From contig MNVE01000016.1 of the NCBI GenBank assembly GCA_001871475.1, positions 197,343 through 261,342 on the forward strand: a stretch of 64,000 nucleotides of DNA. The letters run 5' to 3'. The notes under the pieces were generated by a model, which was not told where the DNA came from, searched no databases, and was given only the letters and a program-made list of their open reading frames with translations. Each line of letters starts with the position of its first letter. The first letter of the stretch is position 1. Below are positions 50,786 through 64,000 of the stretch, piece by piece. Position numbers and translations under genes: made by a program. Source of the DNA: Candidatus Micrarchaeota archaeon CG1_02_47_40. GTDB taxonomy: Archaea > Micrarchaeota > Micrarchaeia > Anstonellales > CG1-02-47-40.

Positions 50786-52123
50786 TATAGTGCTAAATAC
50801 TGAAAGGTGAATGGTGTTTTAGTAAATAAATGTGGAAAATGGGCTCATGAGTGCTAGATTGATGTTTCCGTTCAAGCCGCATATGTTTGTTGCGATGTTC
50901 ATGTTCCTGTTTATAGTATATGCAGTAATGCAGAATGAATGGAAGGTGCGCGTCCTGATGCTTGTTCCGGTGACTGTGCTTTTTGTGGTGTTTGTAGCCG
51001 CCTTTGCCTGGGGGGTTAGGGAGGTTTCGGCGGAAGCGGTGAGAGAGTATAAGAAGAAGGAGAATGCGAAGGGAAGAGGGATTGCCACAAAAGCTTTATA
51101 AACAGACCGCGCCATAAACACTGCTACCGAATTTTAACGGTAAATGAGGGGCAGAACCTGGTTTTGCCCCCCTGGATGGAATGAAACCCTTAGGGGGTTC
51201 CATCTGCTGTGGAAATCCGAAGCTTTCGGATTTGACTTGCGCTTCAAGTGGAAAAAAAAGACAAGCAGCAAAATAGAATTGCTCCTTAATGCAATTCCCT
51301 TAAGAAATAAGGAAATGAACTTTTGCAACTCCAGTTGATCCTGCTGGAGGATACTGCTATCAGAGTCCGACTAAGCCATGCAAGTCAGCCCGCAACCATT
51401 GCGGACGGCGTAAGGCTCAGTAACACGTAGTCAATCTGCCCTTTGGACGTGGACATCCTCGAGAAATTGAGGTTAACCCGCGATAGGCCATCTATGCTGG
51501 AATGCTTGATGGTTTAAAGGTGCGCGCGAATTGGAGTGCGCACGCCGGAGGATGAGACTGCGGTTGATTAGGTAGTTGGTGAGGTAACGGCTCACCAAGC
51601 CGATAATCAGTAGGGGCGATGGGAGTCGGAGCCCCGAGAAGAGCACTGAGACAAGGGCTCTAGTCCTACGGGATGCAGCAGGCGCGAAACCTCTGCAATG
51701 CGCTAAAGCGTGACAGGGGGACTCTGAGTGGCGGAGAACTTAGTTCTCCGTCTTTTGACAAGCTTAGATGGCTTGTAGAATAAGTGCTGGGTAAGACCAG
51801 TGCCAGCCGCCGCGGTAATACTGGCAGCACAAGTGGTATCCACGAATATTGGGTCTAAAGAGTTCGTAGCTGGCTTGCTAAGTTCACTGTGAAATCTTGG
51901 AGCCTAACTCCAAGGCGTGCAGTGAATACTGGCAGGCTTGAGAGCGGGGGAGGCGTGGAGTACTTACGGGGTAAGGGTAAAAAGGAGAGTATTGAATGCC
52001 GTAATGCGCAATACTTTTCATTATAATCTCGTAATCCTGTAAGGACTCACAGTGGCGAAGGCGCCACGCCAAAACGCGTCTGACAGTGAGGAACGAAGGC
52101 TAGGAGAACAAATCGGATTAGAT

Positions 52124-52837
52124 TTGGAGCTAGGGAAACGCTAATAAATAACAACGGATTGATAGAATTATGAGATTAGAGCGCCGGGTAAGAGACCTCG
52201 TGAGTAAGCAGAAACGAAAGCCGCTTATGAAGGTTAAACTTCCAGTCGAAACAAGCCCAGAACTCTGTAGAGTGCTTGGCATTCTACATGGCGATGGGAA
52301 TATGTCTGGAAGACGAGTTTTGCTAACCGACGAAAACAGGGTGTTCCACAGAACGATACATAAACTGTTTAAAACGGTTTTTGGAATTAGGATGAATCTG
52401 TTTCACGACATAAGAAGAAATTCGTATTACAGTTATACGAAAAGTGTCTTGGTGTATCGTTTTTTGAACGAAATAATGGAAATGCCCTGCGGTCCAGTAA
52501 GACAAAATCTGAAGATTCCGTCTTATATGGAAAAGCTTGGTTTGAAACACCAAGCAGAGTATGTTGGCGGACTCTTTGACGCTGAAGGATGCGTCAAAAC
52601 AAGACAGGCCGAACTCAACCTCTCATCTACTTCAAAGAATATCTTCAAGTTTATTGGAGGGTTTTTGAAGAAGATTGGGGTGACGTACAGTACGTATGAG
52701 AGGAGAAGGCACAAAAATCCGGAATATGAGATATATGTTTATGGAAAAGACGACTTGAAAAAATTTTCAAGATATGTTTCTTTTTTGCATCCGTTGAAAA
52801 TGAAAAAGATGGCGAAATTTCTTTAGCTCCACTAAAA
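52124..52837 (+). mobile_element. 16S rRNA intron 1 (after GGATTAGAT, E. coli ~790 region) encoding a LAGLIDADG homing endonuclease
   Basis: The exon breaks after GGATTAGAT and resumes at ACCCGAGTAGCCC. The intron ends TGGAGCTA...TAGCTCCA are complementary (BHB-like stem). Confidence 0.7.
52170..52826 (+). CDS. LAGLIDADG homing endonuclease (double-motif) encoded in 16S intron 1
   Basis: Motifs LGILHGDGN and VGGLFDAEGCV. 218 aa. Confidence 0.75.
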   Translation: MRLERRVRDLVSKQKRKPLMKVKLPVETSPELCRVLGILHGDGNMSGRRVLLTDENRVFHRTIHKLFKTVFGIRMNLFHDIRRNSYYSYTKSVLVYRFLNEIMEMPCGPVRQNLKIPSYMEKLGLKHQAEYVGGLFDAEGCVKTRQAELNLSSTSKNIFKFIGGFLKKIGVTYSTYERRRHKNPEYEIYVYGKDDLKKFSRYVSFLHPLKMKKMAKFL

Positions 52838-53461
52838 ACCCGAGTAGCCCTAGCAGTAAATGATGCAGACTGTGGTGTTGCGTCAGCCTAGAGCTGGCGC
52901 AGTGCTGTAGCGTAGACGGTGCGAGTTTGGGTAGATGCGGATAAGATGCAGCAAACGCGCACCGGCGGAAGTCTTAAGTCTGCCACCTGGGGAGTACGAT
53001 CGCAAGATTTAAACTTAAAGGAATTGGCGGGGGAGCACCACAAGGGGTGGAAGCTGCGGTTCAATTGGATACAACGCCGGGAATATTACCAGAAGAGACG
53101 GCAGAATGATGGCCAGACTGAAGATCTTGCCTGACAAGCCGAGAGGTACTGCACGGCCATCGTCAGCTCGTGGTGTGAACTGTCCCGTTAAGTCGGGAAA
53201 CGAGCGAGACCCTTATGTACTGTTGCCAGCTTTCCTTTGCAGGAAGGCGCACTCTGTACAGACTGCCCGTGTTAAATGGGAGGAGGGAGAGGGCGACGAT
53301 AGGTCAGTATGGTCTGAATCTTCTTGGGCTACACGTGGCTTACAATGGCTGGGACAATGGGCAGCAACTCCGAAAGGAGAAGCGAATCTCACAAACCCAG
53401 CCCAAGTTCGGATTGAGGGCTGGAACTCGCCCTCATGAAGCTGGAATCCCTAGTAATCGCT

Positions 53462-54233
53462 TGTCAACAATCGAGGCAATCTAGCGAAATGTTTATATTG
53501 TTAGCCGCATTTATTCTTGCGGTTAACAGTATGGAAACTAACTGGAAGAAGAATCCCAAATTGCTACAGAAGATAAGGGCATCGTTAGGATTTTCTCAAA
53601 TAAAATTTGCGAGGTTTCTTGGAACGAAGCAAAGCACTTTAAGCGCTCTTGAGCGGGGCGCGATAAAGACGGTTTCTGAAGAAGCCGCCGAGTGCTTTGC
53701 CAAGAGGCTAAAAGGTGTGAAAATTGCATTTATGACTGAAAATGAAATGCAACGGAAACTTTTGCAAATATCGCAAAGAGGAAAGTTCAAGGGAGAATAT
53801 GCAAGAAGTATGGCCCTTAAAGTACATAGTAAAAATGCAGTTGAGAGTGCAAAATCCCAACCTCTTACAAAACAGGAGGAAAGGATAAATACACTTTTGA
53901 AGGAAAGCGGACTGCGCTATGAGGCTCATCCCGCAATTGACGCGGGGGGCATTTCTTTCGTGGCAGATTTTAAGGTAGAAAAAAATAGATGGATGATTCT
54001 TATTGAGGCTAAAGAATTTAGGACGAAATATAGATTGAAAGCGCCTATATGCGAACTTGCATACAAGGCTACGCGGATAAAACGCTTCAATAAGAATGTG
54101 ATGATGGTTGCAGTCGTAAGCGGAAGACTTATGCAATCTGAGAAAAAGATTCTTTCGGATGAGTTTGACGCTGTTTTTGAAGATGAAGGAAAAATATTAG
54201 AATTCGTAAATAGATTGCCTTGAGTGAACTCGA
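53462..54233 (+). mobile_element. 16S rRNA intron 2 (after CCTAGTAATCGC, E. coli ~1350-1360 region); boundaries +/-15 nt
   Basis: The exon sequence ...GAATCCCTAGTAATCGC is interrupted and resumes at ...GCGGTGAATACGTCCC. It encodes a non-LAGLIDADG ORF. Confidence 0.65.
53489..54223 (+). CDS. intron-encoded HTH (XRE-type) plus PD-(D/E)xK-like nuclease-fold protein (putative novel homing endonuclease)
   Basis: HTH_3-like LQKIRASLGFSQIKFARFLGTKQSTLSALERG. The C-terminal AIDAGGISFVADF...WMILIEAKEF gives a D...ExK arrangement. The ORF-track start at 53435 lies in the rRNA exon, so the start was moved to an internal Met. Confidence 0.5.
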   Translation: MFILLAAFILAVNSMETNWKKNPKLLQKIRASLGFSQIKFARFLGTKQSTLSALERGAIKTVSEEAAECFAKRLKGVKIAFMTENEMQRKLLQISQRGKFKGEYARSMALKVHSKNAVESAKSQPLTKQEERINTLLKESGLRYEAHPAIDAGGISFVADFKVEKNRWMILIEAKEFRTKYRLKAPICELAYKATRIKRFNKNVMMVAVVSGRLMQSEKKILSDEFDAVFEDEGKILEFVNRLP

Positions 54234-62880: not shown

Positions 62881-63000
62881 CCCATCGACCCCGCGGTTTG
62901 GTACATCGCTGTCGGCCTAGGTCATCCTGGCGGTGCAGGAGCCGCCAATGGTTGGGTTGTTCATCCATTAAAGACCTACACGAGCTGGGTTCAGAACGTC

Positions 63001-63731
63001 AAGTTGGGCGTTGCTAGGCCGCAAGGCCTTGATAAATAAAATTGGCTCATATCGGTGAAACCTCGCTTTAAAAATATTGCAGACCGCAATGTTTGCAAGA
63101 AAGCGTGGCAATACCGAGGGAAGGCGAGATTTGTGGATTCAACAATGCTTGCGTATATCGCAGGGTTCCTTGATGGAGATGGCAGTATCTTCTTTCAGAT
63201 AGTCAGAAGAAAGGACTACCGTCGGAAATTCCAGATAAGAAGCAGCGTTGCTTTTTATCAGAAGACGGATTCGTGCCGCATTTTAAAGTGGCTCAAGGGA
63301 AGATTGAAAGCGGGGTATATCCGCCATCGCAAAACAGGAATCAGTGATTATACAATTGTCGAATCAAAAGAGGTGGAAAGGATTCTTTCCATTCTACATC
63401 CGTACGTGAAACTGAAGAAAAGACAGCTTGAACTTGGTTTGAAAATTCTGCGCAAACTCAAAAAATCACAAAGCAATAAGGATTTTCTTGGAGTTTGCAG
63501 GCAAGTTGACAAGTTTAAGCTGTTGAATTATTCCAAGAAAAGGACAGTGACATGTTCGGTCGTAAGCAAATCTTTGCCCCTGTAGAGACTGAGGCAGAAG
63601 TGGTCCTGAAAGGAACACGAAAATGCCGAGAGTCCTGCCAAAGGGCAGGGCTAAGACGCCGATCTCCCATGCAGCAAGCGTGGGATGGTGGTATAGTCCA
63701 TGCCATTCCGAAAGGAATGGATTAAACATGC
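63001..63731 (+). mobile_element. 23S intron 5 at the I-CreI homing site (CAGAACGTC^GCGAGACAGTTCGG; E. coli ~2593)
   Basis: The exon breaks after GGGTTCAGAACGTC and resumes at GCGAGACAGTTCGGT. Confidence 0.75.
63055..63585 (+). CDS. I-CreI-family single-motif LAGLIDADG homing endonuclease
   Basis: MLAYIAGFLDGDGSIFFQI...AGYIRHRKTGISDYTI...LKKRQLELGLKIL...DFLGVCRQVDKFKLLNYSKKRTVT parallels I-CreI (LYLAGFVDGDGSI...GYVRDRGSVSDY...KFLEVCTWVDQIAALNDSKTRKTT). The functional start is probably the internal Met at 63145. Confidence 0.8.
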   Translation: MKPRFKNIADRNVCKKAWQYRGKARFVDSTMLAYIAGFLDGDGSIFFQIVRRKDYRRKFQIRSSVAFYQKTDSCRILKWLKGRLKAGYIRHRKTGISDYTIVESKEVERILSILHPYVKLKKRQLELGLKILRKLKKSQSNKDFLGVCRQVDKFKLLNYSKKRTVTCSVVSKSLPL

Positions 63732-64000
63732 GCGAGACAGTTCGGTAGTATCTCCTAGGAGTGTTTCCGCCTGAGAGGAAGAACCCTTAAGTACGAGAGG
63801 AACTTGGGTTCGGCGCCTCTGGTGTACCAGTTGTGCAAAGCACCGCTGGGCAGCTACGCGCTATTGGATAAGACCTGAAAGCATCTAAGGTCGAAGTCAA
63901 TCTCAAAACGAGGCGGATTGGGCGGTCGTAGCAGACGACTTTGATAGAAGGGGGGTGTAAGAGCTAAGCGCAAGCGAGGCTTTCAGCCTGTCCCTTACTA

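Follow-up and report, generated by a model that had tools for sequence, protein, structure and literature searches.

Introns of the bulge-helix-bulge (BHB) type are known from archaeal ribosomal RNA (rRNA) genes, such as the 23S gene of Desulfurococcus mobilis with its I-DmoI and the 16S genes of Thermoproteales (PMC4496867). In these genes, conserved rRNA loops are interrupted, the ends of exon and intron together form the BHB motif, double-motif LAGLIDADG open reading frames (ORFs) are present, short ORF-less introns stand beside long versions, and the sites of "universal" primers are split. All of these features recur in the locus described here, which comprises the 16S, tRNA-Ala and 23S genes of Candidatus Micrarchaeota archaeon CG1_02_47_40. 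The locus lies in a stretch of 64,000 nucleotides (nt) of contig MNVE01000016.1 (positions 197,343 to 261,342), which we refer to as the window and in whose numbering coordinates are given. In our view it is very probably a working rRNA locus, in a DPANN archaeon of the Micrarchaeota, with thirteen intervening sequences of two mechanistic classes, namely twelve BHB introns and one group I intron.

The locus also differs from the archaeal BHB rRNA introns described so far. Their hosts are thermophilic crenarchaea, whereas the window host is a mesophilic DPANN archaeon. Moreover, ten rRNA BHB introns occur in this single locus, one of the ORFs is antisense and another is not of the LAGLIDADG type, and two micro-exons of 15 and 22 nt are present. 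None of the 16S sites of the window (E. coli ~696, 793, 866 and 1363) is found among 12 of the 13 Thermoproteales loci of Jay & Inskeep (PMC4496867), the nearest in that part of their set being 722, 781/803 and 1391.

Three further systems invite comparison. The rRNA insertions of the candidate phyla radiation (CPR, or Patescibacteria) likewise occur in ultra-small, probably symbiotic hosts, occupy about half the length of the rRNA gene, carry many LAGLIDADG ORFs and recur at fixed positions across lineages (PMC11270868). However, these bacterial insertions, of group I, group II or unknown type, involve no BHB/EndA pathway, and their proteins are mostly single-domain LAGLIDADG. The tRNA-Ala of our locus, with its 37/38 and T-loop introns, resembles the multi-intron tRNAs of Micrarchaeota and ARMAN archaea, and the relaxed hBH and HBh′ motifs are similar to those cleaved by the EndA of these archaea, although the relaxed motifs of the window are found in rRNA (PMC5829648). 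According to the same study, relaxed BHB motifs at non-canonical positions are substrates of the epsilon2-type EndA of Micrarchaeota. Finally, single archaeal rRNA genes holding both BHB and group I introns have been reported, DPANN included (PMC6125680). Insertions in Micrarchaeota 16S genes are known as well, and whether that of ARM-1 is spliced has been stated as unknown (PMC8784108).

Results

Arrangement of the intervening sequences

The genes and intervening sequences of the locus are as follows. H denotes the 4-bp central helix of the BHB motif, with h and h′ as further helices, and insertion sites are given in E. coli numbering.

51328-64000, plus strand: 16S - tRNA-Ala - 23S region; Rfam archaeal small subunit (SSU) model 1102 bits, large subunit (LSU) model 1810 bits
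51328-54394, plus strand: 16S rRNA gene (Rfam SSU_rRNA_archaea), 3067 nt, or 1494 nt without its four introns
51983-52026, plus strand: 16S-a, mini-intron of 44 nt, ~696/697, helix 23 loop, relaxed BHB
52124-52837, plus strand: 16S-b, intron of 714 nt, 793/794, 790 loop, canonical BHB
52916-52970, plus strand: 16S-c, mini-intron of 55 nt, 866/867, BHB of HBh′ type
53470-54229, plus strand: 16S-d, intron of 760 nt, 1363/1364, BHB with H 3/4, h 8 bp and h′ 13 bp
57087-57223, plus strand: tRNA-Ala(UGC) gene, interrupted twice; called by ARAGORN on the spliced sequence, with G3:U70
57123-57153, plus strand: tRNA intron 1, 31 nt, canonical position 37/38, hBHBh′, H 4/4, h 5
57173-57206, plus strand: tRNA intron 2, 34 nt, T-loop position 56/57, BHB, H 4/4, h′ 4
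57965-64000, plus strand: 23S rRNA gene (Rfam LSU_rRNA_archaea, model positions 16-2973 of 2987)
59912-60505, plus strand: 23S-A1, intron of 594 nt, 1912/1913, loop of helix 69 (H69), canonical BHB
60521-60559, plus strand: 23S-A2, mini-insertion of 39 nt, 1927/1928, relaxed hBH-like motif
60702-61465, plus strand: 23S-B, intron of 764 nt, 2070/2071, canonical BHB, H 4/4, h′ 10 bp
61632-62364, plus strand: 23S-C, intron of 733 nt, 2252/2253, P-loop, canonical BHB, H 4/4, h 3, h′ 10
62566-62610, plus strand: 23S-m1, mini-intron of 45 nt, 2450/2451, peptidyl-transferase centre (PTC), BHB, H 4/4, h′ 6
62633-62878, plus strand: 23S-m2, intron of 246 nt without an ORF, 2472/2473, loop of helix 89 (H89), HBh′ BHB
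63000-63730, plus strand: 23S-D, intron of 731 nt, after U2593 (between U2593 and C2594), predicted group I IA3 ribozyme

Four of the thirteen intervening sequences are located in the 16S gene, two in tRNA-Ala and seven in the 23S gene. They account for 1573 of the 3067 nt of the 16S gene and for 3152 of the 6036 nt of the 23S gene within the window, i.e., about half of each gene. The 23S gene is truncated by the end of the window, approximately 20-60 nt short of its 3′ end, and its exons total 2884 nt. The Rfam alignment of the 16S gene stops at 53558 because the model is forced into the last 16S intron; the real 3′ end, GATCACCTCC (universal end GTCGTAACAAGGTATCCGTAGGGGAACCTGCGGATAGATCACCTCC), is at 54394.

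Exon junctions restored against uninterrupted relatives

The junctions were determined by comparison with relatives. A 21-mer of the 16S 3′ end led to two Micrarchaeota loci from metagenome-assembled genomes (MAGs), L002 and L003, and a 23-mer of 23S domain V retrieved a set of 119 23S loci (L005-L123) from metagenomes, which belong to related DPANN archaea; loci L124-L132 were added through protein look-ups. The key 16S reference is the uninterrupted gene of L125/L126 (Candidatus Anstonellales), and the uninterrupted 23S references are L040 (80% identity), L096 and L077. E. coli rRNA as the sole reference was too divergent for exact junctions, and Rfam alignments were dropped for this purpose on account of the misplaced 16S end.

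When the four insertions are removed, the 16S gene aligns end to end with that of L125 at 91.7% identity, and the junctions of 16S-b, 16S-c and 16S-d are exact. The register of 16S-a was fixed by the same comparison, its boundary being ambiguous inside an A-run. For 16S-c, a homology-based junction suggested by L002 (52918/52974) was overruled, since the BHB-predicted junction, GCGTAG followed by GTCTTAAG, is the exact sequence of L125. All seven 23S junctions are gap-free against L040, L096 and L077.

Furthermore, the arrangement recurs in independent data. Exact copies of the intron-encoded proteins are found on 3-8 contigs from independent assemblies or sources (NCBI, JGI, ENA and Logan), including contigs of 274,513 and 250,973 nt, and in a second MAG (COV61_ locus tags). 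Therefore, we do not regard the arrangement as an artefact of assembly.

Two length differences of the 23S gene were noted beside the introns. The 3′ strand of helix 68 (H68) is about 13 nt shorter just 5′ of H69 (59895-59911) in the window and all close relatives, with AGAGCGGGGGTAAC in this lineage versus GAAGCCCCGGTAAACGGCGGCCGTAAC in E. coli. A reading in which H69 is missing was ruled out because H69 is present, albeit divergent (GGGGG UAACUCUGA CCCUC), and the shortening sits in H68. A difference of approximately 40 nt in the variable region of domain I (58241-58280) consists of two hairpins with GCAA loops; it was counted as an expansion segment and not as an intron because no BHB motif was seen by eye, this segment not having been scanned.

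BHB motifs at the twelve junctions

The BHB motif was scored at each homology-fixed junction without any register search, using the canonical geometry (H of 4 bp, cleavage between the second and third nucleotides of either 3-nt bulge), and the baseline was derived from 200,000 random position pairs of the same locus. At nine of the 12 junctions, the score exceeded the 99.7th percentile (H 3-4/4 plus h or h′ of at least 4 bp). The remaining three, which are relaxed, score lower (97.3rd percentile for both 16S-a and 23S-A2, 98.8th for 23S-m2). A scan with approximate boundaries had missed A1 and m2 and produced false registers, and it was superseded after A1 and A2 had been separated and intron-less relatives were at hand.

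In the 16S gene, intron 16S-b has H 4/4 and an h′ of 14 bp, and its junction is exact compared with L125, L002 and E. coli. In 16S-c, H is 3/4 and h′ is 7 bp (99.8th percentile). In 16S-a, H is 4/4 and h′ is shifted by one unpaired A; this insertion is absent in L002, L125 and E. coli. Homologs of 16S-d are found at the same site in L124, L131 and L132. An extra insertion of approximately 46 nt in 16S helix 45 of L124 (895-940; CCGTAG[ACACGAGG...GGTGGAAG]GGAACCTGCGG) is absent from the window.

In the 23S gene, A1 has H 4/4 (GGGG/CCCC) and an h′ of 10 bp, with same-site homologs in L038 (608 nt) and L110 (51 nt). The homolog of intron B in L058 has H 4/4 and a 10-bp h′ of unrelated helix sequence, and that of intron C in L038 (698 nt) has H 4/4. 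The m1 site is occupied in L120, L093 and L002 by introns of 155-669 nt whose 5′ ends are similar to that of m1. For m2, 18 relatives are uninterrupted, and homologs are found in L010, L093, L094 and L108 and, by eye, in L122, which the anchored scan had missed; these homologs retain GAG/CTC and a covarying h′ of up to 12 bp. A group I reading of m2 was dropped in favor of BHB because the 5′ splice site has no U and the terminal G is absent. Thus, a BHB geometry with differing helix sequences recurs in other loci at the sites of B, A1, C, m1, m2 and, in the 42-nt derivative of L130, 16S-d. The least certain of the introns is A2, which is absent from 39 relatives; its same-site counterparts of 31 nt and 40 nt in L038 and L120 retain the CTC/GAG helix and the 3′ bulge.

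The micro-exons are the 15 nt between A1 and A2 (60506-60520) and the 22 nt between m1 and m2 (62611-62632), and in each of these pairs the exon-exon helix of one BHB must be made from the micro-exon itself. In addition, group I-like introns occur at LSU/1923 in L094, L058 and L108, where a T closes the 5′ exon, the last intron nucleotide is G and an element GATATAGTCC is present. These relatives lack the A1 and A2 insertions of the window.

The doubly interrupted tRNA-Ala

No tRNA was called by ARAGORN on the unspliced DNA of the whole window, and Rfam gave a weak tRNA match (22.9 bits) at tRNA-Ala. When the T-loop intron alone is removed, ARAGORN calls a tRNA-Ala with a 31-nt intron, and when both introns are removed, it calls tRNA-Ala(tgc) with a restored cloverleaf, the G3:U70 identity pair and the T-loop TTCAAAT. 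The 3′ half of the tRNA of L120 was not located, and this tRNA was excluded from the comparative support.

The group I intron at LSU/2593

The last 23S intron, D, has a BHB score of 0. In its P1, the exon sequence AACGU pairs with GCGUU (63009-63013), with a U.G pair at the 5′ splice site, and the 3′ end is ...ACAUG at 63730, with a terminal G. Its further elements are P2, P3 (AUUGGC/GCCGAU), P4-P6, P7 (GAGACUG/UAGUCC), P7.1/7.2, P8 and a P9 hairpin with a GAAA loop. Introns of at least 300 nt occupy LSU/2593 in 30 related loci (302-809 nt), and L038 has an insertion of 41 nt at this site. Across these homologs, P2 and P5 show heavy covariation, with double changes of P2 in up to 16 of 26 sequences; P4 shows one compensatory change; all 16 sequences compared retain the long-range pairing P3, three of its positions showing compensatory changes; and P7 is invariant. 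Complementary variation in P8, together with P9, was seen by eye in the alignment and not formally counted. The insert in L6 measures 452-459 nt (458 nt in most) and is conserved in the 11 ORF-bearing members.

This intron has been published as IA3.9 by Nawrocki, Jones & Eddy (2018; PMC6125680), with the entry MNVE01000016.1, Micrarchaeota, 731 nt, LSU/2593, P7 GAGACUG/UAGUCC and LAGLIDADG_1, and intron D matches it in contig, length, P7 and type of homing endonuclease gene. Their subgroup-specific IA3 model scored it at E=2.2e-15 (PMC6125680, Table 1), and the insensitivity of the general group I model RF00028 is explained in the same paper. Like the other IA3 introns at LSU/2593 (PMC6125680) and the Chlamydomonas I-CreI intron, intron D occupies this site and carries in L6 an ORF of the I-CreI/I-MsoI/I-CvuI family. 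Compared with the published account, intron D offers nothing new, except that it is now set beside six BHB introns of the same 23S gene. Its structure and homologs argue that intron D is a group I IA3 intron and not a BHB intron, and it would splice itself.

Most of the ORF-less group I introns at LSU/2593 (L062, L076, L036, L064, L099, L042 and others) end in ...GTA or ...ATA. An A thus stands at the expected place of the terminal G, and a shift of the junction cannot yield G. The introns at this site that end in G are those of the window, L008, L067, L104 and L098.

An earlier note on this DNA, which had been made from the sequence alone, described a dense invasion of the rRNA locus by introns of the BHB type. 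The invasion is real, and twelve of the thirteen elements are indeed BHB introns; the last 23S intron is the published group I IA3 intron. The count of five plus two insertions in the 23S gene and two in tRNA-Ala stands, the doubly spliced tRNA being called as tRNA-Ala(UGC), and the count of two in the 16S gene was too low by two mini-introns. The note had also set down that exon junctions failing to restore conserved sequence would speak against introns, and the junctions do restore it without gaps, in the 16S gene by comparison with L125 and in the 23S gene by comparison with L040, L096 and L077.

Proteins encoded in the introns and the spacer

Six ORFs lie within introns and one further gene stands free in the spacer after the 16S gene.

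52170-52826, plus strand: 16S-b ORF, 218 aa, double-motif LAGLIDADG_3 (Pfam 1.5e-16), annotated as AUJ17_05820, hypothetical
53531-54223, plus strand: 16S-d ORF, 230 aa, helix-turn-helix (HTH) domain (Pfam HTH_3) and C-terminal E..D..ExK; candidate non-LAGLIDADG homing nuclease
54572-55045, plus strand: free-standing gene with a predicted I-DmoI fold, 157 aa, double LAGLIDADG; AlphaFold2 (AF2) confidence (pLDDT) 95.9 with 37 sequences
59955-60491, plus strand: A1 ORF, 178 aa, LAGLIDADG_3 (Pfam 2.9e-14), 55% identical homolog in an L038 intron
60781-61437, plus strand: B ORF, 218 aa, double-motif LAGLIDADG type, blastp match to the 16S-b ORF at 4e-10 over 212 aa
61643-62275, minus strand: C ORF, 210 aa, LAGLIDADG_3 (Pfam 5.2e-9), antisense to 23S
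63145-63585, plus strand: D ORF, 146 aa, single-motif LAGLIDADG_1 of the I-CreI family, in loop L6 (Pfam 3.2e-10)

All of the intron ORFs are annotated as hypothetical proteins in the MAG. Six ORFs of this list are of the LAGLIDADG type, as the earlier note had counted; Pfam supports four of them (16S-b, A1, C and D), homology one (B) and the predicted fold one (the spacer gene). The seventh, the non-LAGLIDADG HTH ORF of 16S-d, had gone uncounted. By eye, the acidic residue that closes the LAGLIDADG helix is present in both motifs of 16S-b, B and C and in the single motif of the homodimer-type D, and the A1 ORF has one clear LAGLIDADG motif. Searches of the PDB by sequence matched the 16S-b ORF to intein endonuclease domains (6e-6) and the D ORF to I-CreI, I-MsoI and I-CvuI (~1e-24; phmmer against I-CreI chains 2e-24 to 7e-24, residues 30-170), and yielded nothing useful for the A1, B, C and spacer ORFs. 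I-CreI, I-MsoI and I-CvuI target the same 23S site as that occupied by intron D. The B ORF has no Pfam match and a 62% identical homolog in an L058 intron. In L038 the homolog of the C ORF (991-1614) is likewise antisense to its 23S gene, so that this orientation is found in both loci carrying the gene; transcription of the C ORF would therefore meet that of the rRNA head-on.

The HTH ORF is found at the exact 16S 1363/1364 site in five sequences, namely the window, a variant 97% identical to it, L124, L131 and L132 (exons 79-88% identical), and a sixth locus (L130) has a 42-nt ORF-less derivative at this site. Across 20 divergent homologs there is no variation at Q5, E6, D36 and E49, and very little at the K of ExK. 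The secondary structure predicted for the region of the C-terminal motif runs helix, three strands, helix, which is the order expected of a PD-(D/E)XK nuclease. This domain has no Pfam match; profile hints from the PDB to AF1548 (E 0.43) and T7 endonuclease I (E 1.5) are not significant, and an AF2 model from four sequences was poor (pLDDT 42) and was not used for a fold search. To our knowledge, the homing endonucleases described in archaeal BHB introns are all of the LAGLIDADG type. We tentatively suggest, as a possibility that falls somewhat short of being probable, that this 230-aa ORF could found a non-LAGLIDADG family of PD-(D/E)XK-type homing endonucleases that mobilise archaeal BHB introns. 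The nearest parallel, I-Ssp6803I, is similarly intron-encoded and tied to one site, with E..D..ExK in an alpha-beta-beta-beta-alpha segment, which is predicted in the HTH ORF (PMC3384342). However, I-Ssp6803I belongs to a cyanobacterial tRNA group I intron and has no HTH domain, whereas the HTH ORF lies in an archaeal BHB intron, its fold is only predicted, and the two share no significant sequence similarity.

The free-standing 157-aa protein has no match to a sequence family, and its predicted structure resembles I-DmoI, E-DreI, PI-SceI and I-Tsp061I in Foldseek (TM-scores of 0.6-0.68). Its family comprises 49 homologs, and all members with a source name are from Micrarchaeota or Anstonellales. 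Three kinds of place are occupied: downstream of the 16S gene (the window, L120 and L125), within a 16S intron (L002, 5255-5725, and L003, 2-331) and in the purM-thrS interval (L127-L129, 5001-5513). The 16S intron that holds the family in L002 and L003 probably corresponds to the insertion at E. coli ~1093 that has been described in ARMAN-2 and ARM-1. In the window protein, motif 1 lacks the acidic residue (GLWQARG), and W16 is invariant across the family. The three kinds of place and the degenerate motif suggest a homing endonuclease on its way to domestication, and the window gene may be partly domesticated. In its predicted I-DmoI fold, in its one degenerate motif and in its fixed, host-gene-like place next to thrS in some genomes, the family resembles the domesticated LAGLIDADG protein WhiA (PMC3384342); it differs in having no HTH extension and in that other members are still intron-encoded (L002 and L003).

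Transcription signals and spacer genes

The signals and genes outside the mature RNAs are given below.

51095-51103, plus strand: TATA-like box TTTATAAAC, upstream of the 16S unit, approximately 135 nt 5′ of the processing stem
51237-51275, plus strand: 5′ strand of the 16S processing stem, pairing with 54459-54499 (RNAcofold)
54459-54499, plus strand: 3′ partner of that stem, with a T-rich tract (54503-54524) beyond it
55959-57047, plus strand: ORF with tetratricopeptide repeats (TPR), 362 aa; Pfam TPR matches below the curated cut-offs; MAG annotation AUJ17_05855
57054-57062, plus strand: TATA-like box, 33 nt upstream of tRNA-Ala
57228-57728, minus strand: ORF between tRNA-Ala and 23S, AUJ17_05865, 167 aa, coordinates derived from the annotated length
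57737-57746, no strand assigned: GTTTATAAAC, a palindromic TATA-like box in the gap that separates the minus-strand ORF from 23S

The 16S processing stem consists of 13 bp, a 3-nt bulge, 4 bp, an A-rich 5-nt bulge and further helices, and it is BHB-like, as in archaeal precursor rRNA. A repeat search of the window did not report this long stem, which was found by RNAcofold. The sequence TTTWTAAAC occurs 11 times in the window versus 2.5 expected. Boxes also precede the intron ORFs: a copy of TTTATAAAC stands at 60748-60756, 33 nt before the ATG of the B ORF; a TATA-like box CTTATAAAC stands on the minus strand at 62295-62304, approximately 27 nt upstream of the C ORF; and A/T-rich boxes stand 20-35 nt before the ATG at 59925-59933 (A1), 53491-53499 (16S-d), 52142-52151 (16S-b) and 54543-54552 (the spacer ORF). 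The box 5′ of the HTH ORF is conserved in L124 and L131. These boxes suggest internal promoters and leaderless mRNAs inside rRNA introns, and, judged from their sequence and position, they may function as promoters.

The I-DmoI-fold gene, the TPR ORF, the tRNA and the opposite-strand ORF all lie between the 16S and 23S genes. The spacer between the 16S gene and the tRNA measures 2692 nt and that between the tRNA and the 23S gene 741 nt. In L125, the 16S gene is followed by the same I-DmoI-fold gene and then by ordinary genes, and no 23S gene is found in the approximately 5.6 kb of sequence fetched downstream of its 16S gene; the gaps in L120 are similarly long. The 16S gene's own stem, the TATA-like boxes, the intervening genes and the layout of L125 and L120 make separate transcription plausible, and the 16S, tRNA-Ala and 23S genes probably form three transcription units separated by ordinary genes. 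Separate transcription had been proposed in the earlier note, along with TATA-like boxes before tRNA-Ala and the 23S gene, which are present (at 57054 and 57738). The spacer lengths that it described hold, although "swollen" does not suit spacers that hold protein genes (I-DmoI-fold and TPR). The hairpin that it placed after the 16S gene exists (54399-54418), but the oligo-T that it joined to this hairpin corresponds to the T-rich tract that lies beyond the processing stem.

The segment 55932-57047, whose G+C content is high for this locus, contains a pair of 362-aa ORFs that lie on opposite strands and overlap over nearly their whole length. Of the two, the plus-strand ORF alone has the weak TPR matches and the MAG annotation, and none of the tests run marked it as a mobile-element gene. 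The opposite-strand ORF at 57228-57728 has no family match in the family searches. Elsewhere in the window, a myo-inositol-1-phosphate synthase ORF (25927-28434, plus strand) is split by an intein with a LAGLIDADG_3 domain (Pfam Intein_splicing 5.5e-19, LAGLIDADG_3 2.2e-17), which is a further selfish element, and a TnpB or IS605 OrfB-type transposon protein is encoded at 490-1707 on the minus strand (OrfB_IS605 and Cas12f1-like TNB).

Discussion

We infer splicing from the structure of the introns, their conservation and the functional importance of the interrupted sites. The 790 loop, H69, the P-loop, the PTC and H89 are universally conserved functional loops of the ribosome, and retained insertions would be hard to tolerate there. 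In the mechanism that we propose, each BHB exon-intron pair would fold into two 3-nt bulges around a 4-bp helix, EndA would cut both bulges, and a ligase of the RtcB type would join the exons and circularise the intron, whereas intron D, as a group I IA3 ribozyme, would be self-splicing. Five of the introns carry LAGLIDADG genes, one of them antisense, and one carries the HTH protein with its nuclease-like motif. The intron enzymes are expected to cut intron-less alleles, into which the intron would then be copied, and such homing would explain why homologous introns occupy identical sites in other lineages. Most of the intron ORFs, each with its own TATA-like box 20-35 nt upstream, would probably be expressed from separate leaderless mRNAs.

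The five ORF-less rRNA introns (39-246 nt) may most simply be viewed as decay products that remained after loss of the endonuclease gene. At three of the ORF-less sites, relatives have longer introns, and at two of the sites bearing a homing endonuclease gene (A1 and 16S-d), relatives have mini derivatives. Long, ORF-less and mini forms at single sites are the pattern expected of invasion followed by loss of the endonuclease gene.

Several points weigh against the reading of the locus as a working one with spliced introns. Splicing, ligation and circular introns are deduced as described above, and a Pfam scan of approximately 20 of the larger window ORFs, to which the search was confined, showed no gene for EndA or RtcB. 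The 3′ end of the 23S gene and its processing stem lie outside the window. Only relaxed motifs are present in 16S-a, 23S-A2 and 23S-m2, and no intron-bearing homologs of 16S-a and 16S-c were found among the loci retrieved. RF00028 did not match intron D in the window at E<=5, nor did it match one ORF-less relative at the gathering threshold. In addition, the HTH ORF is a candidate nuclease by its motif.

Some or all of the insertions might remain without exon ligation, giving either a fragmented rRNA that is held together by pairing, as with bacterial intervening sequences, or, for the small insertions (39-55 and 246 nt), retained expansion segments. The motifs of three small insertions are relaxed, m2 sits in the terminal hairpin loop of H89 where an extension is topologically possible, the expansion of approximately 40 nt at 58241-58280 shows that the lineage tolerates length variation, and, as stated above, splicing of the ARM-1 16S insertion has been described as uncertain (PMC8784108). 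However, the 790 loop, the H69 loop, G2252/G2253 of the P-loop and A2450/A2451 of the PTC are universally conserved single-stranded functional elements, and the BHB geometry is kept by compensatory changes in unrelated loci, which is unexpected for expansions or stems of the RNase III type. Moreover, the presence of the insertions is sporadic among close relatives, and the tRNA, whose exons must be ligated, has the same motif. We therefore regard retention or fragmentation as unlikely.

The extreme load of selfish elements, to which the intein and the TnpB element of the same genome add, could also be that of a decaying, non-functional rRNA copy with functional genes elsewhere in the genome, given that the stretch examined is a single 64-kb window. 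Against this, the exons are intact and have high Rfam scores, with a 16S gene that matches its relative without indels at conserved sites; the junctions are all precise, the intron ORFs are all intact and the processing stem has a typical form. A single rRNA copy is usual in DPANN genomes, e.g., the one 16S gene of ARM-1 (PMC8784108), and we consider a decaying copy very unlikely. Hardly credible is a chimera assembled from rRNA fragments and intron sequences of several populations. Although rRNA regions are notoriously hard for metagenome assembly and the source is a MAG, the same intron-encoded proteins recur on independently assembled contigs and in the COV61_ MAG, and each junction is exact and has a splicing motif. 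Thus, a working locus with thirteen introns of two classes remains the reading that we prefer.

In order to judge how unusual the locus is, we counted the insertions in 75 related loci that span the part of the 23S gene holding all seven window insertions. No insertion is found in 44 of these loci, one in 17, two in 12, three in one and five in one, and presence is sporadic among close relatives. With seven, the window has both the top count and the largest total length. The density that had been called exceptional is therefore so within archaea and this lineage, but CPR bacteria reach up to 16 insertions (of at least 100 bp) and 5.7 kb of insertion per rRNA gene (PMC11270868). Extreme among archaea, the locus is not so among prokaryotes at large, and it contains no class of element that was not already known.

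It had also been expected that standard primers would largely miss this rRNA, and standard tools are indeed impaired. Intron 16S-b splits the site of primer 806R (E. coli 787-806) at 793/794, and RDPClassifier could not place the SSU of this contig in a phylum (PMC6125680, Table 1 footnote); hence, the lineage escapes 16S primers and classifiers. Finders of tRNA and rRNA fail here as well: the tRNA escapes ARAGORN, and Rfam puts the 16S end in the wrong place.

The locus provides a fully mapped, junction-verified archaeal example of rRNA genes that each consist of intron over about half their length, with BHB and group I introns side by side and with full-length, ORF-less and mini forms of the same introns across relatives. 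The picture of what such elements are is unchanged by it. Its use lies in the study of the cycle of homing, decay and loss, of the proposed link between group I and BHB introns, and of the limits within which EndA may act on relaxed motifs and on micro-exons of 15-22 nt.

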